Assembly (NCBI GenBank): GCA_903845115.1
Contig: CAIMWE010000123.1
Span: 1,345 to 65,344, forward strand
From: an uncultured Acidobacteriota bacterium
GTDB lineage: Bacteria; Acidobacteriota; Thermoanaerobaculia; UBA5066
Length of the DNA: 64,000 bases
Reading direction: 5' to 3'
This document shows, one piece after another, positions 2,423 through 48,083 of this stretch (the first letter of the stretch is position 1; each line of letters opens with the position of its first letter). A program made the position numbers and the translations under genes. Under the pieces are notes generated by a model. It saw only the letters and a program-made list of their open reading frames with translations. It was not told the DNA's origin and made no database searches.

Positions 2423-3607
2423 ATGCAAGACGTCCTGATTCTCTCCGCCGCGCGGACTCCGATCGGGAGCTTTCTCGGCTCCCTTTCCTCTCTCTCGGCC
2501 CCCGCGCTCGGCGCCACCGCGCTGAAGTCGGCGCTGGAGCGCGGGGAGACGCCCCCGCACAAGGTCGACCAGGTCATCCTGGGCAACGTCCTCCAGGCCG
2601 GGATCGGCCAGGCCCCGGCCCGGCAGGCGACCCTCGGGGCCGGCCTGCCGAAGGCCACGGGCGCGGTCACCGTCCACAAGGTCTGCGGCTCGGGAATGCG
2701 GGCGGTCATGGACGCCGCCAACGCCATCCGGACCGGCGAGTACTCGGTCGTCCTCGCGGGCGGAATGGAGTCGATGTCCAACGCTCCGTACCTCCTCGCG
2801 AAGGGGCGGACCGGCCTCCGGATGGGGCACGGCCAGCTCCTCGACTCGATGATCTCGGACGGCCTCTGGGACCCCTACAAGAATGTCCACATGGGGGTCT
2901 GCGCCGAGACCTGCGCCGCCAAGTACTCCTTCACCCGCGAGGCGCAGGACGCCTTCGCCTACGAGAGCTACCAGCGCGCCCGGCGGGCGAACGATGCGGG
3001 CGACTTCCGCGCCGAGATGGCCCCGGTGACGATCGAGGGGAAGAAGGGCTCGGTCACGATCGAGAAGGACGAGGAGCCGTTCGCCACGCCCGAGGACAAG
3101 CTCCAGAAGATGGGGAGCCTCCGGCCGGCCTTCCAGAAGGACGGGACGGTGACCGCCGCGAACGCGTCGAAGATCAACGACGGCGCCGCGGCGCTCCTCC
3201 TGGCGGGGACGGCTGCGGCTCAGGAGCTGCCGGCCAAGCCGATCGCCCGCCTCGTCGCGCAGGCGTCGCACGCCCAGGAGCCGGAGTGGTTCACCACGGC
3301 GCCGGCGTTCGCCGCCAGGAAGGCGCTCGAGAGGGCCGGGCTGACCCTCCCGCAGATCGACCTGTTCGAGGTGAACGAGGCCTTCGCCGTCGTGGCGATG
3401 GCGTTCATCCGGGACCTCGAGATCGACCCGAACAAGGTCAACGTGAACGGGGGCGCCGTGGCCCTCGGCCACCCGATCGGGTCATCCGGCGCGCGCATCG
3501 TCACGACGCTGATCCACGCGCTCCGCGCCCGGAAGAAACGCTACGGCCTGGCGGCCATCTGCATCGGCGGCGGGGAGGCGACGGCCGTGGTCGTCGAAGC
3601 GCTGTGA
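2423..3607 (+). CDS. Acetyl-CoA C-acetyltransferase (thiolase)
   Basis: 394 aa with N-terminal [26 protein letters not shown] (active-site Cys) and a C-terminal [11 protein letters not shown] thiolase signature. Confidence 0.9.
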
Positions 3608-11766: not shown

Positions 11767-13780
11767 GTGCGTCCTGAAGTGAAAGCGCGAGGATTGGGTG
11801 GAAAGGGGAATCGCGTTGGAGCGAGCTGTACGTCTACAGCGGGTGAAAGTCCCGTCCAGAAAGCGCCGGAGCATCTGGTAGTCGGCCCCAGGCAGCGGGA
11901 GAGATCCCGATGACCCGAGCGGGGCGCCGAAAGCCTCCGAACAGGAGGGAGCGACGACGCGGGCTGCAACATGAAGTGAAGCCTGCCGCCTCGACAGATT
12001 TACAGCGAGGGAGCCGAGCCGAGCATTTCACGGCGAAGGCCATGCGCAGGGCGCAGGGGACCGGAAGAGAAAGCGCCGTGGGTTCCTCCGGGGTATGGGG
12101 CGCGGCACGTGTCGAAGGAGACGTACGGAACAGGAGAGACCCGTCTGCGCGGCCCGAGTCAGGGCAAAGTGGGCCGTATAAGCCGAAGGTGAAGTCGGCC
12201 GCTGCGCAGCGGGAGTCCGAGGGGATCGAAGTACCGAAGAAGGCGGCGACGAATAACGCTGCCAGAGGGAAGGGTCCCTGCGGTGGTCAAGCCGGAAAAG
12301 CAGGTAAGCGCGAGGGCATGTCCGGGACAGCCCGGACCAACGACCCCGATGAGCACAAGCCGATCGAGAAAGTGCGACGACTGCGGATCCGGCTGTGGAG
12401 GGCTGCCAAGCGGCAGCCGGAGCGGCGATTCCATGCCCTATATGACCGTATCCACAGGAGTGACGTTCTGTGGGAGGCGTGGAGACGAGTACGGAGCAAG
12501 AAAGGATGTGCGGGCGTCGACGCCGAGACGCTCGTACAGATCGAGCAGCGCGGGGTCGAAGGCTTCCTCGAGGAGCTTCGGACCGAGCTGCGCGTAGGCG
12601 AGTACCTGCCGAAGGCGGTTCTGCGGCGGTACGTGGACAAGGCCGATGGAAGGAAGCGGCCGCTTGGGATACCTGCGGTGAGGGACAGGGTCGTCCAGAT
12701 GGCGGCGACGCTGATACTGGAGCCGATCTTCGAGGCGGACTTCGAGGACGACTCGTATGGATTTCGGCCGAAGCGCAGCGGGACGGATGCGCTGGAGGCT
12801 CTGCGCAAGCGAGCGTATGCGGGCGGGGGCAGCCACGTATTTGATGCCGACATCCGGGACTACTTCGGGAGTCTCGACCGGGAGCTACTCCTCTCGTTTG
12901 TGGGAGAGCGGATCTCGGACCGACGGGTACTCAAGCTGATCCGGCTCTGGCTGGAGGCCGGGGTGATGGAAGATGGAGAGGTGACCGAGCCGAAGCTCGG
13001 GACGCCGCAAGGGGGCGTCATCTCACCGCTCTTGTCGAACATCTATCTCGACCGGCTCGACACGGTATGGGAACGGCGGCACCGGGACCTGGGGCTGCTG
13101 GTTCGTTATGCTGACGACTTTGTCGTGATGTGTGACACGGCGGAGGAGTGCGCGCGAGCGGCGCGGGAGATCGGGACGATCCTCCGCGAGCTGAAGCTGG
13201 AGCTGCACCCGGAAAAGACGAGGCAGGTCGACCTGACCGATGGCAAGGGCGGGTTCGACTTCCTCGGCTGCCATCTGCGGAAGAAAGTGTCGGGCCGCTT
13301 GCTGGAGAAAGGGGTACGGAGGTACTACCTGAGCCGGTGGCCCTCGGCGCGGAGCATGAAGCGGGTGAGACAGCGCGTGAAGGACGAAACCGACAGCAGA
13401 AAGAACGGCGTGAAAGACGTGAGAAAGCCAATCGAACGTCTGAATCCGATCCTTCGTGGCTGGGGGGCGTACTTCCGTACCGGGAATGCTGCTCAGAAGC
13501 TCAACCAGCTCGACGGCTACGTCTGGAGACGACTCCACCGCTTCAAGGTGAGGCGGAAAGGGCGAAACCTCCGGGCGGGTGAGGCCAGGGCTTGGTCGAG
13601 GGACTTCTTCTCGGGCCATGGACTCCACCGTCTGCGCGGCACTGTCCGCTATCCGGAGACTGCGTAATGCGACCCTTCGAGAGACCACCGGTAAGCCGTG
13701 TGCGGGAAAACCGCAAGCACGGTTTGAAAGGGGGTCTTGTGACTTCAGGAGCGGCCTTGCCGCGAAAGAATTGAACAGGA
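11767..13780 (+). mobile_element. Bacterial group II intron, intergenic, about 2.0 kb; the 3' boundary is approximate
   Basis: A GUGCG consensus 5' end at about 11767. A domain V-like 34-nt hairpin AAGCCGUGUGCGGGAAAACCGCAAGCACGGUUUG at about 13693-13726, followed by about 50 nt of domain VI-like sequence. An RT/maturase ORF sits inside (domain IV). Confidence 0.75.
12318..13667 (+). CDS. Group II intron-encoded reverse transcriptase/maturase (no endonuclease domain)
   Basis: RT blocks: RPLGIPAVRDRVVQ, FGFRPKRS, LGTPQGGVISPLLSNIYL, the YADDFVV catalytic motif and maturase domain X (RGWGAYFRTG). It ends without an HNH/En domain. Start taken at MSGTARTND... Confidence 0.85.
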   Translation: MSGTARTNDPDEHKPIEKVRRLRIRLWRAAKRQPERRFHALYDRIHRSDVLWEAWRRVRSKKGCAGVDAETLVQIEQRGVEGFLEELRTELRVGEYLPKAVLRRYVDKADGRKRPLGIPAVRDRVVQMAATLILEPIFEADFEDDSYGFRPKRSGTDALEALRKRAYAGGGSHVFDADIRDYFGSLDRELLLSFVGERISDRRVLKLIRLWLEAGVMEDGEVTEPKLGTPQGGVISPLLSNIYLDRLDTVWERRHRDLGLLVRYADDFVVMCDTAEECARAAREIGTILRELKLELHPEKTRQVDLTDGKGGFDFLGCHLRKKVSGRLLEKGVRRYYLSRWPSARSMKRVRQRVKDETDSRKNGVKDVRKPIERLNPILRGWGAYFRTGNAAQKLNQLDGYVWRRLHRFKVRRKGRNLRAGEARAWSRDFFSGHGLHRLRGTVRYPETA

Positions 13781-13787
13781 TCTACCA

Positions 13788-14333
13788 ATGAACCCCGATG
13801 AGATGGCGGCCCGCCCGACTCTGGACTTCCCGCCGCTCTCCGTGCGATGGGAGGGGCTGGTCGTCGTCCTGGACGCGACGACGCTCAACACCGTCGTCCG
13901 GAAGGCGCTCGCGAAGGTGCCCGAGATCCGGAAATTCCTGATCGAGCCGGAGTACGGCCGCCTCGGCGTGACCATGACGGTGAAGAAGAGAGGCGTGCCG
14001 GTCCCGCTCCGGTCTCACTTCACGTCGATCCGGCTGAAGGACGGCTTCCTCGGCTTTCACGTCGACGACCTGGTCGCGTTCGGCTTCGTCCCGATCCCCA
14101 ACTGGCTCCTCCGGCGGATCGCGCTCCGGCTGCCGTACCGCTCGGTCTTCTTCTACCCGGACGTGCGGGTGGTCGTGATCGACCTCAACGCCTTCCTCCC
14201 CGAGGACCTGATCGTGAACGTCCGCGACGTCCTCTGCGAGAACGGCGAGATGCGGTTCGTCTTCGGCCCCAGCCAGTACCGTCTCGACACGCTGGTCGAC
14301 GGGATCGGCAAGGACCCGTTCGCGGAGGAGTGA
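13788..14333 (+). CDS. Hypothetical protein (181 aa), no recognisable motif
   Basis: Clean ORF immediately downstream of the intron 3' end, with codon usage matching its neighbours. Confidence 0.45.
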   Translation: MNPDEMAARPTLDFPPLSVRWEGLVVVLDATTLNTVVRKALAKVPEIRKFLIEPEYGRLGVTMTVKKRGVPVPLRSHFTSIRLKDGFLGFHVDDLVAFGFVPIPNWLLRRIALRLPYRSVFFYPDVRVVVIDLNAFLPEDLIVNVRDVLCENGEMRFVFGPSQYRLDTLVDGIGKDPFAEE

Positions 14334-14378: not shown

Positions 14379-15530
14379 CTACCGTCCCAGCCTTCGTGCC
14401 AGCACGCTGACCCCTCGCGCCACGACGTCGGGCGGGCAGGCGGTGTAGCAGATCCGGAAGTGCGTCGGGAACGGGCCGAAGCTCGGCCCGGGGGCCGCGA
14501 AGAGGCCGTCCTCGGCGCACCCTTCGAGGAAGGCCGCCAGGCCGCCCGGCCCTAGGCGCTCCGCGACGTCGAGGAAGAGGAAGGTGCTCCCCTGGGGGGG
14601 CGGGACGCCGAGCGCGTGCGCCGACGCCGTCCCGACCCGCCGGTACTCCTCGCGGGAGGCGCGCGCCCATTCGTCGCCCGCCCCTTCGAGGGCCCGGACG
14701 GCGGCCCACTGGGAGGCGGTGGGGGCGCTGTAGGTGGAGTGGGTGTGGAGCTTCAGCGCCTCCGCCATCGCAGCCCTCGGTCCGACGTCGAAGCCGACCC
14801 GCTGACCCGCCATTCCGTACGCCTTCGAGAAGGAGTGGAGCGAGAAGGAGCGCTCGGGAGCCAGCGGGAAGCCGTAGGTGTGGGTCCCTTCGAACTGCGT
14901 CTCCTCGTAGACCTCGTCGAAGAAGAGCCAGAGGTCTCTCCTCCGCGCCCAGGCGACGAGCGCCTCCAGCCAGGCCCGCGGCAGGACGCGCCCGGTCGGG
15001 TTGCTCGGCGTGTTGACGTAGAGGGCGGCGGTCTTCGCGGTCGCCTTCGCCTCGACGGCGGCGACCGCCTCCTCCGCCGACCCGGCCGAGAGGAGGACCG
15101 GGACGGGCACCGGCGTTGCCCCGAACATCCGCGTGATGCCGTCGATGAGCGGCCAGTGCGGCGCCAGGATCAGCACCTCGTCGCCCGGTCCGACGACCGC
15201 CCCGACCGCCGCCATGAGGCCGGCCGTGGCCCCGCCGCTGACGAGGACGTTCTCCCGCTCGACCGGGGCCCCGGTCCGCACCCGCATCCGCTCGACGACC
15301 AGGTCGACGAGGCGGGGGAGGCCCTGCGGTGGCGTGTACTGGTTCAGCCCCGCGTGGTCGGACGCGAGGATCCCGTCGGTGCCGCACCCCTCGGGCGGAC
15401 TCTTCCAGGTGTCTCCGACGTGGAAGGGGTAGACCTCCCCCTGGTGCGTCTTCAGCTTGTGAAGGAGCTTCGAGTAGACCGATCCCTTGATTCCGGCGAC
15501 CGAGTCCGAGACCTGCGGAGCTTTCGGCAT
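14379..15530 (-). CDS. PLP-dependent aminotransferase, class I/II (aspartate aminotransferase family)
   Basis: 383 aa with the SFSKAYGMAGQRVGF PLP-lysine motif and an N-terminal ...NQYTPPQGLP... region. Confidence 0.85.
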   Translation of the reverse strand: MPKAPQVSDSVAGIKGSVYSKLLHKLKTHQGEVYPFHVGDTWKSPPEGCGTDGILASDHAGLNQYTPPQGLPRLVDLVVERMRVRTGAPVERENVLVSGGATAGLMAAVGAVVGPGDEVLILAPHWPLIDGITRMFGATPVPVPVLLSAGSAEEAVAAVEAKATAKTAALYVNTPSNPTGRVLPRAWLEALVAWARRRDLWLFFDEVYEETQFEGTHTYGFPLAPERSFSLHSFSKAYGMAGQRVGFDVGPRAAMAEALKLHTHSTYSAPTASQWAAVRALEGAGDEWARASREEYRRVGTASAHALGVPPPQGSTFLFLDVAERLGPGGLAAFLEGCAEDGLFAAPGPSFGPFPTHFRICYTACPPDVVARGVSVLARRLGR

Positions 15531-15999
15531 CCTTCGATCCTATTCCGTTTGGGACACCGAGCAGGAGCACGGCCGAAAGGGACCGGCCCACAGAGTTCGC
15601 GTGCGGCGCTCGTCCTGGCGAACCGCCGCGAAGGTGCGTCGCGAAGATCCTGCGCGCGAGCCACCCGTTAGCGGCCCCGTGCTCGCGGAGTCGGGGCGCT
15701 CGCGAACTCGGCCTTCGGCCTCAAACAGCGCGAGCGCCTGACCCGACTTCACTCCGCGCGAGGCCGAACGGGTGCCCGGCACGTGCTCGAAGACCGTTCG
15801 CGACGCACCCTCGCGGCGCTACGCGCCGCACCAGAGAGGCTGCAGCGGATCAGGGGAGACCGGACGCCGCCGGCCTCCCCTGCGGCCCTTCGGGCCTACC
15901 CCTCCATTGTCGTGAGCGGGCAGCGCCAGGATCCCTGGGGTGTGGAAGCTCGGGGCGGTCTCCTTCTCTGGGGCGCGGAGAGGTAGGCCGTGAGGCCGC

Positions 16000-16152
16000 A
16001 GGGGCACCCGGCCCGGGTGCCCCTGATCAATATTGACCGCCCTCGGCGAGGCGCGAAGCGTCCTCGCCCTCGGCGAGGCGCGAAGCGTCCTCGCCCTCGG
16101 CGAGGCGCGAAGCGAGTCGCCCTCGGCGAGGCGCGAAGCGTCCTCGTCTCGC
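16000..16152. repeat. Structured repeat element, copy A: 10-bp-stem hairpin, then CTGATCAATATTG, then four 26-27-nt tandem units (GCCCTCGGCGAGGCGCGAAGCGTCCTC)
   Basis: Seen directly in the sequence. Second copy at 43510-43630 with the same architecture. Confidence 0.8.
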
Positions 16153-16153
16153 G

Positions 16154-16738
16154 TCAGTCGATCCACACCTCCACCTTCCCGTCGTGGCTCTGGATCTCCA
16201 GGAGGTTCCCTGCCTGCGAGTCGGTCAGCTCCCCGAGGAGGGCGTCGACGTCCAGCGGCCTGTCCCGGTCGGCGAGGCGGGAGAGGAAGACGGACGGGAT
16301 CGTGAGGGTCGCCGTGTCGTCGCTCCCTTCCTCGGAGCCGGGGCGGCCCACCGTGATCCGGACGGACGCCTTGTCCTTCACGAAGGTCCACCTGTCGTCG
16401 TCGAAGGTCCGGGTCACCTCGGTGCAGTCGGGCTTCTCGGACAGCTCCTTCCAGAGGCTCCGGACCTGCTCGGCCTCGATCGACTGGTCGAACCGGCTCT
16501 CCAGCTCCTGCCGGACGCGGGCGCCGGTGGCCTTGAGCCCGTGGCGGACGAGGCCGAAGGGGACCGAGAAGGAGATCTTGTCGGGGTGGACCGTCCCGTG
16601 CCCGACGTCGCTGATCTCCATCCGGAGGAAGCGGGGGGCGCTCTTGCCGTGGGCGTGGCCCGGCACCGTGAAGGCGTAGACCAGCAGGAAGACCAGGAAG
16701 CAGAAGACCGCATTGACGACCGACCGGAGCTCCTTCAT
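16154..16738 (-). CDS. Hypothetical exported/membrane-anchored protein (194 aa)
   Basis: Internal Met start MKELRSVVNAVFCFLVFLLVYAFTVPGHA (signal/TM), then a charged soluble domain. No recognised family. Confidence 0.45.
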   Translation of the reverse strand: MKELRSVVNAVFCFLVFLLVYAFTVPGHAHGKSAPRFLRMEISDVGHGTVHPDKISFSVPFGLVRHGLKATGARVRQELESRFDQSIEAEQVRSLWKELSEKPDCTEVTRTFDDDRWTFVKDKASVRITVGRPGSEEGSDDTATLTIPSVFLSRLADRDRPLDVDALLGELTDSQAGNLLEIQSHDGKVEVWID

Positions 16739-36134: not shown

Positions 36135-36165
36135 GCCCGCCGAGGAAACGCCCCGGAGACCTTCT

Positions 36166-36190
36166 CAGGCCCGCCTTCCGGCGGGCCTGA
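36166..36190 (+). terminator. Putative secDF terminator hairpin (GGCCCGCC-TTCC-GGCGGGCC), no clear U-tract
   Basis: Perfect 8-bp GC stem about 30 nt after the secF stop. Confidence 0.4.
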
Positions 36191-36294
36191 CCGCGTTCTG
36201 GGGCCTCGGCGACCCGGCCCGGCGGCGGCGGCCGGCCGGGGTCCGGAGGACGGGCCGGGCTGCGACGCCTCCTCTCGTGTGGGATAGTTGACGC

Positions 36295-36936
36295 TTGGAC
36301 GCAGGAATCGCGATCGACGACGAGGACGTGAGGCGCACCCTGCGCGCGTGGATCGAGGCCAGCATCCCGCCCCTTCACGGCTGGGCCACCGTGGAGAAGG
36401 GGCTCGCGCTGGCGGAGCTCGTGTACGCGACGCGCGCCGAGTCCTCCGTCGAGATCGGGGTGTTCGGGGGCCGCGGGACGATCTCCATGGCGCTCGGCCA
36501 CCGGGCGGCCGGCCGGGGCGTGGTCACGGCCATCGACCCGTGGGAAGCCGGAGCGGCGCTCGAGGGGGAGAACTCTCCCGAGAACGACGAGTGGTGGCAG
36601 AAGATCGACTACGAGGAGATCTTCCAGCATTTCGTCGGCGCCCTCGAGGCGTGCGGCCTGTCCGGGCAGTGCCGGATCCTCCGGAAGCGCTCCCACGATG
36701 CCGTGACGCTCTTCGAGGACGAAAGCATTTCCGTGCTCCACCAGGACGGCAACCACTCGGAGAAGGTCTCTTGCGCCGAAGTGCAGTCGTGGGGCCCGAA
36801 GGTCGGCCCTGGCGGGTACTGGGTCGCCGACGACACCGACTGGCCGACCACCCGGCGCGCCCAGGAGATGCTCCTGGAAAGGGGATTCCGGGTGATCGAG
36901 GACCGCGGCGCCTGGCGCGTCTACCAGAAGCCGTGA
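36295..36936 (+). CDS. Class I SAM-dependent methyltransferase, Methyltransf_24 (TylF/CmcI-like) family
   Basis: VEIGVFGGRGTISMALG (SAM-binding glycine-rich loop) and VLHQDGNHSEKVSCAEV, which fits the hxDGDHsye pattern of this family. The start codon is uncertain (a TTG at 36295 or a GTG at 36328). Confidence 0.6.
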   Translation: MDAGIAIDDEDVRRTLRAWIEASIPPLHGWATVEKGLALAELVYATRAESSVEIGVFGGRGTISMALGHRAAGRGVVTAIDPWEAGAALEGENSPENDEWWQKIDYEEIFQHFVGALEACGLSGQCRILRKRSHDAVTLFEDESISVLHQDGNHSEKVSCAEVQSWGPKVGPGGYWVADDTDWPTTRRAQEMLLERGFRVIEDRGAWRVYQKP

Positions 36937-36938
36937 CG

Positions 36939-37997
36939 ATGGTCGGGGCGTTCGGGGCCTGGATCGGGGACCGCATCTCGCGCCTTCGGGCGGAGCGTCG
37001 GAAACGGGCGCCGCTCTCCTCGTGGGACACCGGCCTCAGCGTCGTCTACGTCACCCGTCGCGCCGAGCCGCGCTTCGACTGGTTCGCCGATAGCCTGGCT
37101 TCCCAGCTAGGCGGAGAGGAGAGCCTCGAGGTCGTCTTCGTGGACGGGTTTCACTCCGCCGGGAGGTCGGCGGCCCTCGCAGGGATCGTGCGTGGCCGCT
37201 TTCCCTACCGGCACGTCCCCCCCAAGCCCTCCCCGTTGAGCGGCCCCTACAGGCTGACGGCGCGGGAATATTTCGCGGCTGCGAGCGCGCGCAACACGGG
37301 GATCGTCTACGCCCGGCACCCGTACGTCGTCTTCGTCGACGACGTATCGGTCCTCCTCCCGGGCTGGTGGAAGGAGGTTCGCCGGGCTGCGAGGCTCCGG
37401 TACGTGGTTGCCGGCGCCTACCAGAAACACTTCGAGATGACCGTGGAGGACGGCCTCCTCGTCGCGAGCCGGTCGGAGCCAGCCGGGATCGACTCGCGCT
37501 GGGCCCTGGGCGATTCCGGGGGCCTGGTTCCCATCCCGGGCGGCCAGCTGTACGGCTCGAGCGTCGGGGTGCCGCGGGACGCCCTCCTCGCCGTCAACGG
37601 CTTCGACGAGCTCTGCGACTCGGCCGGGGGCGAGGACTACCAGCTCGGAGTGCGACTGGAGTGGGCCGGGGAAGCGATCTACTACAGCCGCGCGATGCTG
37701 ACGGTCGAGAGCGAGGAGCTTCACCGGCAGGGCGCCGCTCTCGGTGGCATCGATCGCACGCTGGACGAGGCCGCCTACATGAGCTTGCTCAGGACGTTCG
37801 GGGTGGGGCGCCGCACGACTGACGGCCCGCGCGAGATGGGCTTCATGGTCCTCGACATCCTCTACGGGACGCATTCGGTCCGGTCCCTGGGCAACTCCTA
37901 CTCCCTCGCGGAGCTCCGGGAGGAGGATCTTCCCGGTCTCGTCGAAAGGTTCCCCCGCCGCCACTGGTTCACGGGCGAGGCCCTCTCCGACCTATGA
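36939..37997 (+). CDS. Hypothetical protein, possibly a GT-A-like nucleotide-sugar transferase
   Basis: 352 aa. VVFVDGFHS and HPYVVFVDDVSVLLPGWW, two hydrophobic-D-D style segments, and FDELCDSAGGEDYQLGVRLEW. Weak assignment. Confidence 0.35.
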   Translation: MVGAFGAWIGDRISRLRAERRKRAPLSSWDTGLSVVYVTRRAEPRFDWFADSLASQLGGEESLEVVFVDGFHSAGRSAALAGIVRGRFPYRHVPPKPSPLSGPYRLTAREYFAAASARNTGIVYARHPYVVFVDDVSVLLPGWWKEVRRAARLRYVVAGAYQKHFEMTVEDGLLVASRSEPAGIDSRWALGDSGGLVPIPGGQLYGSSVGVPRDALLAVNGFDELCDSAGGEDYQLGVRLEWAGEAIYYSRAMLTVESEELHRQGAALGGIDRTLDEAAYMSLLRTFGVGRRTTDGPREMGFMVLDILYGTHSVRSLGNSYSLAELREEDLPGLVERFPRRHWFTGEALSDL

Positions 37998-38917
37998 GGC
38001 CGCAGGCCCTCCACCGGCGGATCGTCTCGCGAGGGGACCTGCCGGGAAGCGACGGCGGGATCTACAACCCCGCGGCGGTCCCGGCTGGCTCCGCGATCCT
38101 CCTGCTGTGTCGCCGGGAGATCGACTACCGATTCACCGCCCGGGTCCACCCGGAGGCGATCCTCGTCGATCCCGACTCCTTCGCCGTCCTGCGTCACTGG
38201 ACGCTCCAGAAACGGGGCTTCCCCCGGTCTTCCCGCGTGGAGGACTTCCGGCTCCTCGCGCACCGGGACGAGCTCCTCGTCGTCCACACCCTCGTCACGG
38301 AGGACCGGATCAAGCCCGTGATCTCCCGCGTCTCGGGCAGGCGGCTGGAGCTGTTCGACGAGCTCGAGCTCCCCGTGGCGATCGACCGCGTGGAGAAGAA
38401 CTGGGTCCTCTTCGAGCGGGGAGGGACGATCCACTGCCTCTACCGGCTCGACCCCCTCACGATCTTCGCCAGGAAGCGGCGCGGATCGTGGACTCTCGTC
38501 CGGCGGGAGCCGAGCGGCTGGTCGGGCGAGCTCGAAGGCGGGCTGAGCAACTCCACCAACCTCATCCCGTTCATGGACGGATTCCTGGGCTTCTGGCACA
38601 CGCGGCTCCACGGACGGTACGTCCAGGGCGCCTTCCTCCTCGACGCCGACCTGCGGCTCCGGTTTCGGACGGGCGTGCTGCTCGACGGCGCCGACGTCCG
38701 AGAGGGGTTCAAGCCGGGCGTTCTCTACGTCAGCGCCCTCGTCGAGCATCGGGGGACGATCCTCGCGTTCTACGGCGAGGGAGACGCCCACACGAGCGTC
38801 GCGATCTTCGACGCCCGGGAGCTCGAGGACGAGCTCCGGCGTTCCCCGTCGGCGGGCGAAGGCCCTGCGCCGGACGGCGGGTTCCGGTCCTGGTGCCCTG
38901 TCTGCGACCTGCGCTAG
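37994..38917 (+). CDS. Hypothetical protein of unknown family; paralogous to the C-terminal domain of the 41413..43533 protein
   Basis: Shared motif blocks with the GT2-TPR protein C-terminus: GIYNPAAV..ILLLCRRE vs LACNPSIL..YLVNCRAV, EKNWVLFE vs QKNWLPFVE, H.RLHGRYVQGAFLLD vs HGIRYYLHRFLLLD. Confidence 0.5.
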   Translation: MRPQALHRRIVSRGDLPGSDGGIYNPAAVPAGSAILLLCRREIDYRFTARVHPEAILVDPDSFAVLRHWTLQKRGFPRSSRVEDFRLLAHRDELLVVHTLVTEDRIKPVISRVSGRRLELFDELELPVAIDRVEKNWVLFERGGTIHCLYRLDPLTIFARKRRGSWTLVRREPSGWSGELEGGLSNSTNLIPFMDGFLGFWHTRLHGRYVQGAFLLDADLRLRFRTGVLLDGADVREGFKPGVLYVSALVEHRGTILAFYGEGDAHTSVAIFDARELEDELRRSPSAGEGPAPDGGFRSWCPVCDLR

Positions 38918-38956
38918 GCGGTCGGCCCGGACGGTCTCCGGCCGGAGCGACCGCGG

Positions 38957-39766
38957 CTACCTTCCGGCGTCGCCCCCCCGCCCGCCGGGCCTCCTCGGCA
39001 TTCCCGCGATCAGCGCGCGGGCGGCCCCGTCCGCCTCTCCCCGAGCCCCCTTGAGAGCCTCTGCCCGTATCGCGGCGAGACGGAGCGTCCGGGAAGCGAG
39101 GTCGAGGCGCTGCCGGCCCGCCAGGGCGAAGCTGAGGAGCTCGAGGAGGGCTTCCCCGGCCGACAGCTTCGTCGGATTCCACGCCGCCCCGGGACGGTGC
39201 CTGAGGACGGCGATCCTTCCCACCGGGAGGGGGCGCGCGGGCACTCGTGCCCCGAGGGACTCGTGGCCGACGCGCAGGAAGCCGTCCCTCCGGAGCACGA
39301 TGGGGCGGGCGTAGGGGTGGGCCCGGCCCTGTTCGTCGATCACGGCGAACTCGTCCGAGAGGTACTCGGCGCCGGCACGCAGCAGAGCCGCGACGAGCTC
39401 GCTCTTGCCGCTGCCCGACCGTCCGGGCAGGAGGATGGCCTGGCCGTTCCACGCGACCGCCCCCGCGTGCACGAAGACGAGCCCCTCGGCGCGGCATGCG
39501 AGGAACCGCTCCACGTCGTCGACGACGAGGTCCGCGGCGACGGCGGCGGTGGGCGCGTTCAGCACGAGGCGGGCGCCCCGGCGGACGGCCATTCCCGGAC
39601 GGGCGCCGTCATCGTCCCTCACGGCGTAGCGCCGGTCCGCCGGGGCCGCCGGAGACAGCGCCTCCACCGGCGGCAGCCGGGCGGAGAGGAGCGGCCAGAA
39701 CGAGGCGTCGGGCGCGTCGACCCTCAACGCGACACCGAAGAGCCGGAACGTGGTCCGCTCGGGCAA
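38957..39766 (-). CDS. HPr-kinase/phosphorylase C-terminal-domain-like P-loop kinase (lasso-peptide-kinase-like)
   Basis: GRSGSGKSE Walker A in the HprK-like context (AILLPGRSGSGKSELVAALLRAGAEYLSDEFAVID). No N-terminal HprK regulatory domain. 269 aa. Confidence 0.7.
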   Translation of the reverse strand: MPERTTFRLFGVALRVDAPDASFWPLLSARLPPVEALSPAAPADRRYAVRDDDGARPGMAVRRGARLVLNAPTAAVAADLVVDDVERFLACRAEGLVFVHAGAVAWNGQAILLPGRSGSGKSELVAALLRAGAEYLSDEFAVIDEQGRAHPYARPIVLRRDGFLRVGHESLGARVPARPLPVGRIAVLRHRPGAAWNPTKLSAGEALLELLSFALAGRQRLDLASRTLRLAAIRAEALKGARGEADGAARALIAGMPRRPGGRGGDAGR

Positions 39767-39773
39767 GGCCGCG

Positions 39774-40955
39774 TCAGGCCGCCCGCCAGCGAAGGCGGGA
39801 GCGGATCTTCTTCAGGAGCGCGAGGGGGAGCTCTCTCTCCTGGTGCAGGCCCCACATCTCCCGCAGGTACGTCGGGAACGCCCGGATCCGCTCTCCGAGG
39901 GGAAGGGCTTTCAGCTCCCCGGACGAGGCGCGCCAGTGGAGGAAGACCCCTCGGAGCAGCGACGGCCGCCGCATTCGCGAAGCGACCTCCAGGCGGCGGC
40001 GCCACCCGCGGGAATGCCGCCGGAGGTTCGCCAGGACCTCGGTCGGCACGGCGGCGCCGAACTCCGACCCCAGGAAATTCAGCGCAAGCAGGAGGGGGAG
40101 GCAGAGGTCCCGGGCGCGCGCCTCGGAGACGAGAACGTCCCAGTCGAGGGCCGCGGGCTCGCGCCGGAGGAGGAGGACGGCGTCGGCGACCCAGTGTACG
40201 GGGGGGACGGGGCTCCATCGAAGGCCGTGCACGCACACGGACAGGAGATGGTCGGCCGGCGACAGGGTCCAGGCCCTCACGTCGCCCGAGACGAAGGGGA
40301 CGCTCCGGGCGAGAAAGCCCGCGTCGGCCCCTCCGGCACACGACTCCATCAGTGCGTGCCGGTGAAGGTCGACCTCCATCGGCGCCGGACCCGCGAAAGC
40401 TTGGCCGTGAAGATGGAGCATCCGGGACGCGGGCTCTCGCGCCACCGCTCGCCACCCCTCGGCCTCGAGGCAGCCCACGGCGGCGCCGAATTCTCCCTCG
40501 GGGACGAGAAGGTCGACGTCCCCCATGGGCCGCAGCGCCCGGTGGGGATAGACGAGCGCGGCGAGGGCGAGGCCTTTGATCACGACCACCCGGCTGACGA
40601 CCCGCGACAGCGAACCGATCAGCGATGCGGCCGCATCGGCGATCCCCTCCTGCTGGACCCAGGCTTCCTCCACGGTCCCGGGCCTTCCCGTCGCGGTGCC
40701 CGCCGCCAGGATCCCCAGCCTCCTGAGGTTCCACTCTGCCAGCGGAAGGAGGCGGCGCGCCGGACCCGAGGGGGGGCTCCCCCCGGCCAGCAACCACCGG
40801 TCCCAGGCGTTGCCGGCTCCTTCGCCCTCGAACAGGCCGGCCCGCAGGAGGTCGAGATCCGAGCCGCCTGGCCGGGTTCCCCGCGGCTCCGATATACTGG
40901 CCACGTTCGAGCGAATGAGACCCGCTCCATCGTGCGGGAACACGGAGGACGGCAT
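39774..40955 (-). CDS. Nucleotidyltransferase-family protein of the PF14907 (RiPP/lasso-associated NTase) type
   Basis: 393 aa with the hG[GS]/DxD NTase core (PMGDVDLLVPEG). Size and layout fit PF14907. It sits 8 nt upstream of the HprK-like gene on the same strand. Assignment is by pattern memory. Confidence 0.6.
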   Translation of the reverse strand: MPSSVFPHDGAGLIRSNVASISEPRGTRPGGSDLDLLRAGLFEGEGAGNAWDRWLLAGGSPPSGPARRLLPLAEWNLRRLGILAAGTATGRPGTVEEAWVQQEGIADAAASLIGSLSRVVSRVVVIKGLALAALVYPHRALRPMGDVDLLVPEGEFGAAVGCLEAEGWRAVAREPASRMLHLHGQAFAGPAPMEVDLHRHALMESCAGGADAGFLARSVPFVSGDVRAWTLSPADHLLSVCVHGLRWSPVPPVHWVADAVLLLRREPAALDWDVLVSEARARDLCLPLLLALNFLGSEFGAAVPTEVLANLRRHSRGWRRRLEVASRMRRPSLLRGVFLHWRASSGELKALPLGERIRAFPTYLREMWGLHQERELPLALLKKIRSRLRWRAA

Positions 40956-41382
40956 GACCGTATCGTACCCGAGGGCCCGCCGCGTCGGTCTGAGGACCGA
41001 GACGCTCCTCGACGAGTTGCTCGTCTACGACCTCGCCAAGAAGAAGGCTCACTGCCTCAACGCGACGGCGGCGTGCGTCTACCAGCTCGCGGACGGAACG
41101 CGTTCGACGAAGGTCCTCGCCAAGGAGCTCTCGGAGCGCTTCGGAACCCCGGCTGGCGAGGACCTCGTCTGGTACTGCCTGGACGAGCTCGGGCGCCAGG
41201 GACTCCTGGAGTCGGGCCAGGCGGAGACGTCGAAGGTGGTGGTCCCGTCGCGCCGCCACCTGCTGACCCGCCTCGGAATCGCGGCCGCCGTTCTCCCGGT
41301 CGTCCTCTCCGTGGCGCTGCCTCGTCCGGCGTCGGCTCAGCTGCGGAGCCCCGGGCCGACGGGCACTCCCATCCCCGACTAG
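40936..41382 (+). CDS. PqqD-family protein (RiPP recognition element-like) with an unusual C-terminal extension
   Basis: TETLLDELLVYDLAKKKAHCLNATAACVYQLADGTRSTKVLAKELSERFGTPAGEDLVWYCLDELGRQGLLE matches the PqqD/RRE winged-helix pattern (LxxYD...hxLNxxAxxIWxL.DG..T...L). Track coordinates are used. The ATG I read lies about 18 nt later, where it shares a CATG with the divergent NTase start. Confidence 0.65.
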   Translation, partial: GNTEDGMTVSYPRARRVGLRTETLLDELLVYDLAKKKAHCLNATAACVYQLADGTRSTKVLAKELSERFGTPAGEDLVWYCLDELGRQGLLESGQAETSKVVVPSRRHLLTRLGIAAAVLPVVLSVALPRPASAQLRSPGPTGTPIPD

Positions 41383-41412
41383 GCGGCCACGCCTCTCCAC
41401 GGTCGCCATTTC

Positions 41413-43533
41413 ATGACCCGGGAATCGCGCGCCTCGAGGGAACCGTCCCCGCCGCCCAGGGTCTGCCTCTGCATGATCGTCCGGAACGAGAAGCGAGTCC
41501 TCCGGCGCTGCCTCGACGCGGCCGGGCCGATCGTCGACGCGGTCAGCCTCTGCGACACCGGGTCGGACGACGGGACGCCGGAGATCGCGACCGCGTGGCT
41601 CGCCGAACGGTCCGTTCCGGGGCGCGTTCACCGCCACGTCTTCCGCAACTTCGGCCGCAACCGGACCCTCGCGGCCGAAGCGGCCCGCCGGACGATGCTC
41701 GGCCTCGGCTGGGACCTCGAGACGAGCTACCTCCTCTTCCTGGACGCCGACATGGTCCTCGAGATCGCGCCGTCGTTCCGGGCGAAGTCGCTCGGGGCGG
41801 ACGTCTACCGCGTCTTCCAGCGGAACGGCCGGTATCTCTACCCGAACGTCCGCCTGGTCCGCGCGAGCCTTCTCGGGCGTTTCCTGGGGGCCACCCACGA
41901 GTTCTTCCAGCCTCCACCGGGGACGCGGCAGCGGACTCTCGAGACGCTCTCCATCGACGACCGGTCGGACGGGGGGTTTCGCGCCCAGAAGCTCGAGAGG
42001 GACCGCAGGCTCCTCCTGGCGGAACTCCGCGCGAGGCCGCGGGACACGCGGGCCATGTTCTATCTCGCGCAGACCTTTCGGGACCGGCTGGAATGGGACG
42101 ACGCCCTCCGCTGGTATCGAAAGCGCATCGGAGCCGCGGTAGGGGCCGAAGAGGTCTGGTACTCCCACTACGCGAGCGGTCTCATCCAGCTGCGAAGGGG
42201 AGACACCCGGGCCGCGGTCTCGAGCCTCCACCGGGCGATCCGTCTCGATCCCTCGCGAGCCGAGCCCTACTACTACCTGGCCGGCTACCTGGCCGCCCGC
42301 GGGCGCTTCCTCTTCGCGGCGCGACTCGCCCGGCGCGGGGCAGCGCTCCCGATGCCCCGGAACCGCTCTCTGTTCCTGGAACCTGACGTCTACCGGTGGG
42401 GGCTTCTCTCCGAGTTCGCCCGGCTGGCCTACTTCACGCGGCTCCGCGACGCGGGGCTCGAGGTAAACGAACGGCTGGTCCTGGGCGCCGGCACTCCCGC
42501 CGACGCGGTGGAGCGGGCGAAGGGAAACGCCGTCCTGTATGCGCGGCCCCTGCCCGACGCCACCTACCTCGAGCTCACGCCCAAGCTGCCCGCCGGCTAC
42601 CTCGCCTGCAACCCCAGCATCCTCAGGACGACGAGCGGGTACCTCGTGAACTGCCGCGCCGTCAGCTACCGGCTCGACGAGTCCCAGCGCTATCACTCCC
42701 GGAGGCCGGACGGTGCGCTCCGGACCCGCAACTTCCTCCTCCGGACGGACCGTTCGCTCCGTTCCCTCGAGCAGCAAGAGCTCCGCTGCCGCGAGCGGCC
42801 GTTGCGCCCCAGCCACGTTCGGGGGCTCGAGGACTGCCGGATCTTCCGGCTGGGCGGGTCCCTCGCCGCCACGTGCACGACGGCCGAGCTCCACCCGGCG
42901 GGCCCGGCGCGCATGTCGCTGGTCCGGTTCGACCGCGACCTCGGGCTCGTCCGGCACCTGCCCCTCACCGGCTACCGGGACGCCCTCCCCCAGAAGAACT
43001 GGCTTCCTTTCGTGGAACCGGCCACCGGCGACCTCCAGGCGGTTTACGGCCTTGCGCCGTTCGTCACGCTTCGGATCGACCCCGCGAGCGGCGTGTGCGA
43101 GCCCACGAGGGAACGAGCCGAGCCCAGGCCCTTCGGGGACTTTCGCGGTTCCGCCGGGCCCGTCGACCTGCCCCGGCCGCTCGGCGGCGGCCGACTGCTG
43201 CTCGTCCACGAGGTGGCGTTCCACGGCATCCGCTATTACCTGCACCGCTTCCTGCTGCTGGATCGGGGCTGGCGGGTCACTCGCGTGTCACGCCCGTTCT
43301 TCTTCCACCACCGGGGGATCGAGTTCGCGAGCGGCGCCTGCGTCGCCCACGGAGGGAGGGACCTCCTCGTGACGCTCGGCGTCGAGGACCGGGAGGCCTG
43401 GATCTGTCGCGTCTCCCTCCGCTCCGTCCTCGCCTCCCTGCGCCCGCTCCCCGACGCTGAAGAATTCCCAGGGAGCGGAGAGGTAGCGGCGGGCGGAGCC
43501 CGACGCGCAGGGGAACCGGAGGGGTTCCCCTGA
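41413..43533 (+). CDS. Multidomain protein: SunS-like GT2 glycosyltransferase, TPR-like helical region, and an about 330-aa unknown C-terminal domain
   Basis: N-terminus CLCMIVRNEKRVLRRCLDAAGPIVDAVSLCDTGSDDGT...FLDADM is the GT-A DxD, comparable to the glycocin glycosyltransferase SunS (GIIVYNE...CLNS..., FIDADN). TPR-like helices (AMFYLAQTFRDRLEWDDALRWYRKRI; EPYYYLAGYLAARG). The C-terminal domain is a paralog of 37994..38917. Confidence 0.65.
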   Translation: MTRESRASREPSPPPRVCLCMIVRNEKRVLRRCLDAAGPIVDAVSLCDTGSDDGTPEIATAWLAERSVPGRVHRHVFRNFGRNRTLAAEAARRTMLGLGWDLETSYLLFLDADMVLEIAPSFRAKSLGADVYRVFQRNGRYLYPNVRLVRASLLGRFLGATHEFFQPPPGTRQRTLETLSIDDRSDGGFRAQKLERDRRLLLAELRARPRDTRAMFYLAQTFRDRLEWDDALRWYRKRIGAAVGAEEVWYSHYASGLIQLRRGDTRAAVSSLHRAIRLDPSRAEPYYYLAGYLAARGRFLFAARLARRGAALPMPRNRSLFLEPDVYRWGLLSEFARLAYFTRLRDAGLEVNERLVLGAGTPADAVERAKGNAVLYARPLPDATYLELTPKLPAGYLACNPSILRTTSGYLVNCRAVSYRLDESQRYHSRRPDGALRTRNFLLRTDRSLRSLEQQELRCRERPLRPSHVRGLEDCRIFRLGGSLAATCTTAELHPAGPARMSLVRFDRDLGLVRHLPLTGYRDALPQKNWLPFVEPATGDLQAVYGLAPFVTLRIDPASGVCEPTRERAEPRPFGDFRGSAGPVDLPRPLGGGRLLLVHEVAFHGIRYYLHRFLLLDRGWRVTRVSRPFFFHHRGIEFASGACVAHGGRDLLVTLGVEDREAWICRVSLRSVLASLRPLPDAEEFPGSGEVAAGGARRAGEPEGFP

Positions 43534-43630
43534 TCAATATTGGCTGCCCTCGGTAGAGGCGCGAAGCGACTCGCCCTCGGCAGAGGCGCGAAGCGACTCG
43601 CCCTCGGCGAGGCGCGTAGCGTCTCGCTCC
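43510..43630. repeat. Structured repeat element, copy B (hairpin GGGGAACC-GGAG-GGTTCCCC, then CTGATCAATATTG, then three 26-27-nt tandem units)
   Basis: Same architecture as copy A, with compensatory base changes in the hairpin stem. It overlaps the 3' ends of both convergent genes. Confidence 0.8.
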
Positions 43631-44874
43631 GACCCGAAGACCCCTTCCCACTTCGCCACGACCACCGCCGCCACGCAGTTGCCGGCGAGGTTGATCGAGG
43701 TACGGGCCATGTCCATCAGCTCGTCGACGGCGAGGATCATCGCGACTCCCGCCTCGCCCGGCAGGTTGAACGCCGCGCAGCCGGACACGATGATGACGAG
43801 CGAGGCCCTGGGCACCGCGGCCACCCCCTTCGTCGTGAGCATGAAGGTGAGCATCATCAGGACCTGCTCGGTCCAGGTCATGTGCCGTCCGGCCGCCTGC
43901 GCGATCGTGAGCGAGGCGAGCGCGATGTAGAGCGTGGAGCCGTCCAGGTTGAAGCTGTAGCCGGCCGGGAGGACGAAGCCGGCCACGCTCTTCGGGACTC
44001 CGAACTCCACGATCCGCTCGAGGGCGCGCGGGAGGGCCGCCTCGGAGGACGCGGTCGAGAAGGCGATCATGAAGGGCTCCCGGATCGCCCGGAAGAACTT
44101 GAGGACCGGGACCTTCGCCAGCTTCAGGGCGGGGACCATCACGATCAGGACGAAGATGACCAGGGAGAGGTAGAGCGACCCGACGAGCTTCACGTAGCTC
44201 CGGAGGACCCCGAGGCCGTGGTGGGACACGGCGCCCGCCATCGCGCCGAAGACGCCGAGCGGGGTCAGCGCCATCACGTAGTCGGTCAGCTTGAACAGGA
44301 CCGCGACGGCCGACTCGAAGAAGGCGACGAACGGCTCGGACCGCTTCCCGACGTGGGCCGCAGCGATTCCGAGGAGGGTGGCGAAGATGACGATCTGGAG
44401 GATGTCCTGCCTCGCCATCGCGTCGATGACGTTCGAGGGGAAGAGGTGGAGGAGGGTCTCCACGAGCGTCTTCGGCTTCGCGAGGTTGGCCTCGCCGGTC
44501 ATCGGGAGCTTCAGGTCGAGGCCGGGCTTGACGACGTTGGCCATCACGAGGCCGATGACGAGGGCGATCGTGGTGGCGACCTCGAAGTAGACGAGGGCCT
44601 TCACGCCCATCCTTCCCACGGCCTTGATGTCGCCCGTCTTGCCGATGCCGAGGACGATGGTCGCGAAGATCAGCGGGACCACCAGCATCTTGATGAGGCT
44701 GATGAACGCCTTCGAGAGGAAACGGAACGTCTCGTAGGCCGCCGGGTACTGTTCCGCGGGGAGGCGGTCGCCGAGGACGACGCCGAGCACCAGCGCGTAC
44801 ATGATCAACGCCGTCCCCGACAGGAACGCGGAGCGGCCGCGCGGAGCGGCCGCGGGCGGGGCGCCGCCGGTCAT
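43534..44874 (-). CDS. Dicarboxylate/amino acid:cation symporter (DAACS family, GltP/DctA-like)
   Basis: Typical DAACS TM layout and motifs (e.g. AAFNLPGEAGVAMILAVDELMDMARTSINL). Start set at MTGG..., overlapping the dedA stop (ATGA). The last about 30 aa (AEGESLRAS repeats) come from the tandem repeat element. Confidence 0.8.
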   Translation of the reverse strand: MTGGAPPAAAPRGRSAFLSGTALIMYALVLGVVLGDRLPAEQYPAAYETFRFLSKAFISLIKMLVVPLIFATIVLGIGKTGDIKAVGRMGVKALVYFEVATTIALVIGLVMANVVKPGLDLKLPMTGEANLAKPKTLVETLLHLFPSNVIDAMARQDILQIVIFATLLGIAAAHVGKRSEPFVAFFESAVAVLFKLTDYVMALTPLGVFGAMAGAVSHHGLGVLRSYVKLVGSLYLSLVIFVLIVMVPALKLAKVPVLKFFRAIREPFMIAFSTASSEAALPRALERIVEFGVPKSVAGFVLPAGYSFNLDGSTLYIALASLTIAQAAGRHMTWTEQVLMMLTFMLTTKGVAAVPRASLVIIVSGCAAFNLPGEAGVAMILAVDELMDMARTSINLAGNCVAAVVVAKWEGVFGSERDATRLAEGESLRASAEGESLRASTEGSQY

Positions 44875-47795: not shown

Positions 47796-47888
47796 GCCCA
47801 CAGGCGGGGCAGGGCGGATTTCGGGGAGAGTCTCGCCGGAAGGCGGCCCGGGGCCCCGGGCCCGGGTCCCCCGTAGGGACTTCTGCCC

Positions 47889-48083
47889 CTACCGGACGAC
47901 CTTCGTCACCTTCCCCGAGCGGATGCAGCGAGTGCAGACCTTCATCCGCCTGGAGCCACCGGGGGTGGCGGCGCGGACGGGCCTCAGGTTCGGCTTGAAC
48001 TGCCGGAGGGAGACATTGTTGGCGTGACTGACCTTCCGACCGGCAACCGGGGACTTTCCGCAAACCGCGCAACACTGGGCCAT
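47889..48083 (-). CDS. rpmB: 50S ribosomal protein L28
   Basis: 64 aa. C.VCGKSPVAG.KVSHANN...R.F.PNL pattern. Confidence 0.8.
   Translation of the reverse strand: MAQCCAVCGKSPVAGRKVSHANNVSLRQFKPNLRPVRAATPGGSRRMKVCTRCIRSGKVTKVVR

Follow-up and report, generated by a model that had tools for sequence, protein, structure and literature searches.

Among the closest described relatives of the repeat reported here are the GTAG-tagged repetitive extragenic palindromes (REPs), whose unpaired tag reads GTAG or a variant (GTGG, for instance), and which form subfamilies with alternative complementary stems, occur in head-head, tail-tail and tandem arrangements and as inverted dimers, and are located preferentially between convergent and unidirectional open reading frames (ORFs) (Di Nocera et al. 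2013, PMC3733652). Of these units more than 10% are found at ORF ends, and the ends of the repeats "often provide the stop codon" (PMC3733652); repeats fused in frame with protein genes, which they lengthen at the 3' end, have been reviewed (Delihas 2011, PMC3184786). Here we describe a 157-bp repeat element, copy B, located on a 64,000-nt stretch of DNA from an uncultured Thermoanaerobaculia bacterium (the window, with a G+C content of 70%, to which all coordinates refer as a whole), where a single TGATCA palindrome ends two convergent genes. Copy B likely belongs to a small repeat family that is specific to this lineage of Thermoanaerobaculia, consists of structured, palindromic intergenic sequences and resembles REPs and bacterial interspersed mosaic elements (BIMEs) or miniature inverted-repeat transposable elements (MITEs); the C-terminal tails and the stops of both genes are derived from copy B. 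We read the repeat family as previously undescribed, and its fusion to gene ends as a known phenomenon, which is here clean, two-sided and polymorphic.

The shared stop and the anatomy of the element

Copy B spans the entire gap between the last conserved codons of a gene for a family-2 glycosyltransferase with TPR repeats (GT2-TPR) and those of a convergent gene for a DctA-type symporter. The features of the junction are given with the evidence for each in brackets; copy A is the other array-bearing copy of the element in the window, and L010 is a related contig.

41413..43533, plus strand: GT2-TPR glycosyltransferase ORF (Pfam and homologue C-termini)
43534..44874, minus strand: DctA-type dicarboxylate/amino-acid:cation symporter (PF00375), 446 aa (identical to P0265)
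43531..43536, both strands: TGATCA palindrome, the TGA of GT2-TPR (plus, 43531-43533) and of DctA (minus, 43536-43534) (sequence and ORFs)
43470..43626, plus strand: element copy B, 157 bp, comprising tag, hairpin 1, hairpin 2, core and 27-nt array (comparison with L010 and copy A)
43475..43486, plus strand: 5' tag GCGGAGAGGTAG (GTAG tag), read G-E-V-A in GT2 (identical in copy A, 15975-15986)
43487..43507, plus strand: hairpin 1, CGGCGGGC-GGA-GCCCGACGCG (folding; helix 1 covariation)
43508..43532, plus strand: hairpin 2, CA-GGGGAACC-GGAGG-GGTTCCCC-TG (sequence, folding; helix 2 covariation)
43527..43542, plus strand: conserved core CCCCTGATCAATATTG, the sole AT-rich part of the element (exactly two copies in the window)
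43546..43626, plus strand: 27-nt minisatellite of two full units and one degenerate unit, with box CCCTCGG and mini-hairpin GCGC-GAA-GCG (Tandem Repeats Finder)

The GT2-TPR gene, assigned by Pfam and given a start at 41473 by gene callers (product of 686 aa), ends with ...GEPEGFP and the TGA at 43531-43533, and DctA ends with ...AEGESLRASAEGESLRASTEGSQY and the TGA on 43536-43534, the intergenic distance being 0. Sequence and ORF translations thus bear out two claims of the first-pass annotation, namely that TGATCA is the stop of both convergent genes and that a hairpin is read as the ...GEPEGFP terminus of GT2-TPR. It is hairpin 2 (43510-43530) that falls in the GT2 reading frame and encodes these residues, and on the other strand it begins 1 base past the DctA stop. 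The 27-nt array falls in the DctA reading frame and encodes the DctA tail RDATRLAEGESLRASAEGESLRASTEGSQY. The final 20 residues of GT2-TPR (GSGEVAAGGARRAGEPEGFP) and the final 30 of DctA are element-derived, the tail stretches of the two proteins including WEGVFGSERDATR, ESLRASAEGESLR and AGEPEGFP. A DctA tail of about 30 residues translated from the 27-nt repeat had been proposed and was found (30 residues, lacking in the homologues); of the three AEGESLRAS units that it was said to contain, two are read (A/T)EGESLRAS, but the third, gene-proximal unit is read ERDATRL because it is one base short. The zero spacer, described earlier as unusual, was likewise confirmed, but it is not unique in the clade: in a more distant relative (L013 6586-6591; also L014 and L015) a convergent pair with zero spacer shares TAGCTA within GAGTAGCTACTC, at a junction involving no repeat element.

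Copy B carries the tag GGAGAGGTAG, has TGATCAATATTG as its core, and is completed by two hairpins and the minisatellite, which was called by Tandem Repeats Finder at 43546-43627 with 3.1 copies and 92% matches. The layout is shared with copy A (GCGGAGAGGTAG, hairpin 1, hairpin 2 of the form GCAGGGG...CCCC, core and 27-nt array). The hairpin interiors of the two copies are wholly different with pairing kept, and hairpin 1 of copy B, unrelated in sequence to its counterpart in copy A, still pairs; hairpin 2 is predicted by folding to be very stable. The 16-mer CCCCTGATCAATATTG is found exactly twice in the window (16020 and 43527), against 0.08 occurrences expected even when up to three mismatches are allowed, and GGAGRGGTAG has four matches in the window against 0.22 expected.

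On the plus strand all three frames stop inside the element (at the TAG of the tag at 43484, at the TGA at 43531, and at a TAG in the first array unit at 43554), and the chance that GT2 uses the TGA is about one in three. Of the minus-strand frames, that of TGATCA alone has a nearby stop, and the other two run to 43279 and 43238. A DctA fusion in either of these two frames would add some 115-130 residues from the junction, antisense to GT2 and about 85-100 beyond the observed tail, and would probably be lost. Where the single AT-rich stretch of an otherwise GC-rich element holds a palindromic hexamer and purifying selection acts, a two-sided stop is natural and not evidence of design; the shared stop is not very improbable.

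Origin and variation of the two C-terminal tails

The comparison of orthologous C-termini proposed in the first-pass annotation was carried out, and both the DctA and the GT2-TPR homologues end without the element tails. The 119 listed DctA homologues outside the window's own cluster (74-89% identity, from Thermoanaerobaculia wherever named) are conserved up to WEGV[FL]G[SPT]E, past which they carry 6-30 unrelated residues, and the AEGESLRAS repeat occurs in none of them. Within the same 90% DctA cluster, P0264 (contig L018) ends with ...GSETNGAAARAAAPTV and its stop, and a spacer of 18 bp separates it from a convergent gene other than GT2-TPR. Some 50 GT2-TPR homologues end ...LRPL or ...LRPLPD, or add short unrelated extensions of 0-20 residues. 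The element tails are thus missing from about 170 homologues in total, and the same extensions in repeat-free relatives, which would have marked the tails as ancestral, were seen in none of the homologues compared.

The empty site is provided by contig L010, whose GT2 is 72% identical and which has the same convergent GT2/DctA junction in an element-free form, with a 22-bp spacer and two separate stops (GT2 ...LRPLPLGFPP-TGA; DctA ...GSELPGATSSGEAAT-TAG). Aligning L010 with the window places the breakpoints after TTCCC (43469) and before CTCCGACCC (43627); opposite the 157-bp element L010 has 68 bp, made up of the GT2 end and stop, the spacer, and 13 DctA codons with their stop. By this alignment the element is shown to have replaced about 70 bp holding both native tails, both stops and the spacer, so that with the loss of both native stops both ORFs read into the element. 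Of the proposal that the element inserted between two convergent genes and fused onto both reading frames, the fusion is therefore supported, but the event was a replacement and not a simple insertion. The junction may have arisen by illegitimate or microhomology-mediated recombination, or by transposition with deletion, whereby GT2 would have gained 20 residues and DctA 30, with TGATCA ending both.

The opposite origin, with the tails as ancestral coding sequence (a DctA repeat domain and the true GT2 C-terminus) and the likeness to copy A as secondary, would agree with a period of 27 nt, which is divisible by three, and with the uninterrupted ORFs. It is contradicted by the absence of the tails from every homologue, and by a search of the DctA tail peptide against 1.84 billion cluster representatives, which returned a single match, an unrelated protein with a TEGPELRMV repeat. 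Copy A, moreover, is non-coding and has a 26-nt unit, the gene-proximal unit at copy B lies in a different frame, and third-position GC drops in both tails, from 0.90 in the body of GT2 to 0.68 and from 0.96 in the body of DctA to about 0.74 (hand count over 31 in-frame tail codons). An ancestral origin appears extremely improbable, and these comparisons effectively refute it.

The array itself is polymorphic. DctA alleles of 437, 446, 455 and 464 aa in the 90% cluster contain 1, 2, 3 and 4 nine-residue units and are otherwise identical; they were found on 1, 15+1, 2+1 and 5 contigs, respectively, with contigs of up to 120 kb, and the window carries the 446-aa allele. As the 27-nt period equals nine codons, slippage shifts the DctA tail by nine-residue steps and the stop is kept. 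In the copy A array, which has four units in the window and three in L004 and L006, one unit has 26 nt, a deviation to be expected outside any reading frame. The GT2/DctA junction occurs in at least 24 contigs of the DctA protein cluster, as well as in the independent assemblies L002 (ENA, one unit more than the window) and L005 (JGI, at least 4 units). The L005 contig terminates within the array, so assemblers do break there, and the junction might be a chimeric join at the tandem repeat; but the flanks on both sides are identical in the window, L002 and L005, and the alleles of 1-4 units recur on multiple contigs of up to 120 kb. The same junction in independent ENA and JGI assemblies with differing unit numbers rules out an assembly artefact, which we consider hardly credible.

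The tails replace C-termini that are variable and unconserved, have an atypical codon composition, and vary freely in length, and are for these reasons taken to be tolerated by-products rather than new functional domains.

Copy B also lies at the edge of an accessory region.

36135-43469: 7.4-kb accessory block between SecF and DctA (Pfam; comparison with L001 and L018)

SecF of the window ends at 36134, and the block encodes a methyltransferase, two GT2 proteins, a GH130-like protein, an HPr-kinase-like protein, NTP_transf_5, a PqqD-like protein and GT2-TPR; through the joint presence of PqqD, NTP_transf_5 and HPr-kinase-like genes it is reminiscent of peptide-modification clusters. The block is missing from L001, the closest DctA relative with a readable flank (89%), in which DctA faces SecF over 13 bp, and is replaced by a PEP-CTERM-like gene in L018, the region 3' of DctA being variable among relatives. 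Since L010 has the GT2 of this island directly against DctA without the element, the element came after the island, and its import together with the glycosylation island was rejected. A 27.5-kb mobile island bounded by the two direct copies was rejected as well, because the interval holds housekeeping genes.

The location of copy B exactly at the island/DctA junction, in a region where L001 lacks the island, would also suit an iteron- or att-like protein-binding or recombination site bounding the glycosylation island, formed by the array and the AT-rich palindrome; tandem direct repeats do lie beside an AT-rich palindrome containing GATC, and the two copies with an array stand as direct repeats at a distance of 27.5 kb. 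Set against this, the element-free L010 junction places the island first, the ORFs tested include no integrase, Rep protein or transposase, the stretch between the copies encodes housekeeping functions (pentose-phosphate enzymes, SecDF and the DNA polymerase III delta subunit), and both copy A and a third module described below lie away from the island borders, so that such a boundary site is very unlikely.

L010 shows a further peculiarity at 2808-3130, where only the last 89 DctA codons are present and abut sequence resembling the 3' end of SecF with its terminator hairpin. This gene order is unlike simple synteny and points to a rearrangement or to a chimeric assembly at GC-rich microhomology.

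The modules of the repeat family and their structure

The repeating unit of the family is a module of about 90 nt. Read on the tag strand, it consists of GGAGRGGTAG, hairpin 1 (4-5 bp with a G-N-A loop), CGCA or GA, hairpin 2 (GGGG...CCCC), an AT-rich linker of the TGATCA/TCATGA type, a CTCCGG/CCCTCGG box, and the mini-hairpin GGCGC-GNA-GCGCC. The 27-nt array unit of the window is the box plus mini-hairpin of this module, tandemly amplified. A covariance model, R1, was built from eight modules (window, L007, L011 and L012); it recovers all eight at 58-83 bits and scores copy B 64.5 bits at 43475-43570. The other modules of the window, and the orthologous spacers between the 194-aa gene and the aminotransferase gene that flank copy A (locus A), are as follows.

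15975..16146, plus strand: copy A module R with 27-nt array, four units (three in L004 and L006) (R1, 81.8 bits)
15815..15907, minus strand: copy A module L, inverted with respect to module R (R1 model, folding)
47823..47907, plus strand: third module, diverged, flanked by the stops of RelA and of the convergent L28 gene (R1, 25.2 bits, E = 3e-4)
L008 locus-A spacer, 31 bp: no modules
L016 (more distant relative) locus-A spacer, 58 bp: no modules
L007 locus-A spacer, 164 bp: one module
L012 locus-A spacer, 445 bp: three modules
L011 locus-A spacer, 595 bp: one module
Window locus-A spacer, 623 bp: two modules plus array

Copy A is non-coding, beginning 7 nt past the stop of the 194-aa gene in the 623-bp spacer upstream of the aminotransferase gene. 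Its modules R and L are inverted and 71 nt apart, giving a long three-way hairpin, and copy A overall (15848-16029) forms an imperfect palindrome with arms of 16-19 nt. A second inverted pair is found in L012, where modules b and c are 7 nt apart and modules a and b stand head-to-tail; L009 has a partial module at its contig end. At the site of the third module about 68 nt are missing from L001 in the alignment, and the box and mini-hairpin of this module coincide with the conserved 3' end of L28 (CTACCGGAC...). Sequences resembling CTCCGG or CTACCGG may be preferred as junction sites, as this coincidence hints. All loci lie at gene 3' ends, locus A between unidirectional genes and loci B and C between convergent ones, and of the eight modules five are antisense and three sense with respect to the upstream gene. 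GGTAG stands immediately 5' of hairpin 1 in five of the eight modules, the other three having GTGG, GGAG and GAGG.

Base pairing is conserved across the family. MAFFT gave a structurally poor alignment of the modules, and pairs were counted on the model-fitted alignment, in which 80.7% of cells pair, compared with 38-50% when the partners are slid; nine pairs are changed on both sides, a number reached by 0 of 500 shuffles. Folding z-scores against shuffles range from -2.9 to -3.5 for both strands of both copies. By inspection, the loop of hairpin 1 or of the mini-hairpin reads C(GNA)G on the tag strand in 14 of 15 cases; DNA mini-hairpins of the type d(GCGNAGC) are of exceptional stability. 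Three G-T wobbles, also noted by inspection, all lie on the tag strand (two in hairpin 2, of window module L and of L012b respectively, and one in the mini-hairpin of window module R), and together with the loop pattern they indicate, weakly, which strand folds.

These structures, with unpaired motifs conserved and stems covarying, could instead have been selected as cis-acting RNA or DNA (a 3'-untranslated-region terminator or stabiliser, or a bidirectional insulator), the coding overlap being a side effect of compact spacing. The wobbles confined to one strand, the high stability of hairpin 2, and the position of all loci at gene 3' ends, two of the three window loci lying between convergent genes, agree with this. 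Yet the modules are inconsistent in their orientation to the upstream gene (five antisense, three sense), a single orthologous spacer shows both inverted pairs and a varying number of copies, the module is entirely missing from close relatives (L008, L018 and L001), and neither an Rfam family nor a T-run terminator was recognized. We regard a selected cis-acting structure as a doubtful explanation.

Database and pattern searches covered RNA families, regulatory signals and other genomes. Rfam at the gathering threshold reported no family for the modules, its only report being a group II intron at 11837-13799, and Rfam in E-value mode over both copies returned only sub-threshold miRNA-like hairpin matches. 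A sigma-70 promoter scan around both copies gave nothing. An exact scan for CAGGGG-N6-30-CCCCTGATCAATATTG found one chance match (a metagenome-assembled Treponema genome) in 185,579 species genomes, and in JGI metagenomes only the same two loci, from which repeat-number alleles were obtained; diverged copies would be missed by both scans. The array pattern was absent from IMG/VR viral contigs, and copy A had no blastn match among 72,556 plasmids. Of the 29 ORFs tested between 1.8 and 43.5 kb, two had no Pfam match; the others, once the intron maturase and the accessory island are set aside, are housekeeping genes. Several candidates were discarded: a generic window scan for GTAG plus a 5-7-bp hairpin was non-specific, matching coding sequence and missing the real modules because their stems have 4-5 bp; a CRISPR array was rejected as the units are head-to-tail with no spacers; and an iteron-like reading, as well as a likeness of hairpin 2 to helix 45 of 16S rRNA, was dropped by eye.

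Membership of copy B in a mobile, REP/BIME- or MITE-like repeat family remains the preferred interpretation; the modules would have spread as DNA, possibly via single-stranded hairpin intermediates. Several observations weigh against it. The alignment behind the covariation was fitted to the model, and comprises only eight sequences that are partly orthologous; unpaired motifs that are conserved beside stems that covary would be expected of a selected RNA or DNA structure as much as of a selfish repeat. Only three to four modules occur within 64 kb, and given the exact scans the genome-wide copy number may be low. No transposase (including the Y1/RAYT type of PF01797) or integrase was found among the 29 ORFs. 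A terminator scan for hairpin plus T-run over 43000-44000 and 15500-16500 found no terminator-like sites, hairpin 2 being followed by TGATCAATATTG on the plus strand and TGCGCG on the minus strand. Finally, a module of about 90 nt with three hairpins and conserved linkers differs from the single 20-40-nt palindrome of a REP. A more far-reaching proposal, rather unlikely in our estimation, would make the modules an undescribed class of composite mobile element in Acidobacteriota, with three hairpins on one strand, C(GNA)G loops, a GTAG tag and a linker rich in stops on two strands, which would be moved as single-stranded DNA by an HUH-type enzyme, target convergent 3' ends and rewrite C-termini, and whose minisatellite, expanding in frame, would tune the cytoplasmic tail of a transporter.

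Other features were noted in the surroundings of copy A. A second palindromic feature in its spacer, at 15618-15824, has 28-nt inverted repeats (89% complementary) around a 151-nt segment. The segment recurs in L011 (about 2030-2190), turned round with respect to the flanking genes, and may be invertible or a second MITE-like element; it has no Rfam match. In L007 (4573-4607) a perfect palindrome encloses the stop of the 194-aa gene, its 3' arm repeating the final codons as their reverse complement (GGATCGACTGA...TCAGTCGATCC), and L009 (4573-4610) has a compensated version of it (GGATCGATTAG...CTAATCGATCC); the window has lost the 3' arm, the array starting there. A conserved stretch, GCGCCCTCGCGGCGGTTCGCC...GGCGATCGGATCCCTC, lies upstream of the aminotransferase start (window about 15560-15625, minus strand; L011 2370-2440; L012 1335-1400); it had no Rfam match and could be a leader or regulatory sequence. 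The intron lies further upstream in the window.

11837-13799, plus strand: group II intron (Rfam: RF02003 at 11837-11974 and RF00029 at 13691-13799)

It carries a reverse transcriptase/maturase ORF (11910-13667), is situated downstream of the UbiA gene, and is missing from the syntenic region of L008.

Comparison with known repeat systems

At this junction non-coding repeat DNA was turned into protein-coding sequence in two genes at once, and the empty site, a non-coding sister copy and alleles of 1-4 units are all publicly available. The locus serves to illustrate how gene ends can be remodelled and spacers removed by small structured repeats in compact GC-rich genomes, and it is a warning for annotation, since a repeat can be the source of C-terminal repeat "domains" and of zero-spacer convergent genes. 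Model R1 and the module consensus form a starting point for cataloguing the repeat family in Thermoanaerobaculia. The two-sided stop and the in-frame repeat-length polymorphism are details, and no new principle or mechanism is involved.

The modules resemble REP, BIME and REPIN sequences (PMC3733652; Nunvar et al. 2010, PMC2817692) in having an unpaired GTAG-type tag beside a GC-rich stem-loop, subtypes with alternative complementary stems, inverted dimers that fold into longer hairpins, and tandem reiteration together with flanking DNA, with unit numbers varying between strains. They also share the location 3' of ORFs, notably convergent ones, where the ends give stops and some units are translated at ORF ends. 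They differ in that hairpin 1 has only 4-5 bp and that only hairpin 1 with the tag resembles a short-stem REP; in that a REP typically has more than 100 dispersed copies per genome and a cognate RAYT gene flanked by the repeats, compared with three to four modules in the 64 kb covered here and no such gene among the 29 ORFs tested; in that the stop used at copy B comes from the TGATCA linker and not from the TAG of the tag; and in that part of the module was turned into a 27-nt minisatellite.

With MITEs and other palindromic elements (Rickettsia RPE, Correia/NEMIS, ERIC and enterobacterial small mobile sequences; PMC3184786) the modules have in common that they are small, non-autonomous, structured and situated at or within genes, and that such elements are read through in frame, lengthen protein 3' ends and bring their own stops. 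Differences are that terminal inverted repeats accompanied by a target-site duplication were not recognized at the copy B junctions, that copy B holds one half (one arm) of the palindromic pair seen at copy A, that its formation was a replacement with deletion, and that both convergent genes are fused to one element sharing one palindromic stop site.

The in-frame coding minisatellites of bacterial surface and contingency genes likewise have a unit length that is a multiple of three, slippage and protein length alleles, which correspond to the 1-4, possibly more, units of nine residues in the DctA tail; here, in contrast, the array is of non-coding origin, being intergenic at copy A, and is located at the extreme C-terminus of a housekeeping transporter. 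In E. coli, REP hairpins close to stop codons reportedly interfere with translation termination, a finding attributed to Liang, Rudd and Deutscher in Mol Cell in 2015. The situation at DctA is similar in that a very stable hairpin lies within a few nucleotides of the stop, hairpin 2 starting 1 nt past the DctA UGA, and by analogy with REP hairpins it may act as a terminator or stabiliser at the mRNA 3' ends of both genes and may slow terminating ribosomes; organism and element are, however, unrelated. Measured against the definition of a REP, the modules have the tag, the inverted-dimer and tandem arrangements and the location, but not the single palindrome of 20-40 nt, and with this mixed outcome they are best called a REP/BIME- or MITE-like composite repeat rather than being filed as a proven member of the REP family.

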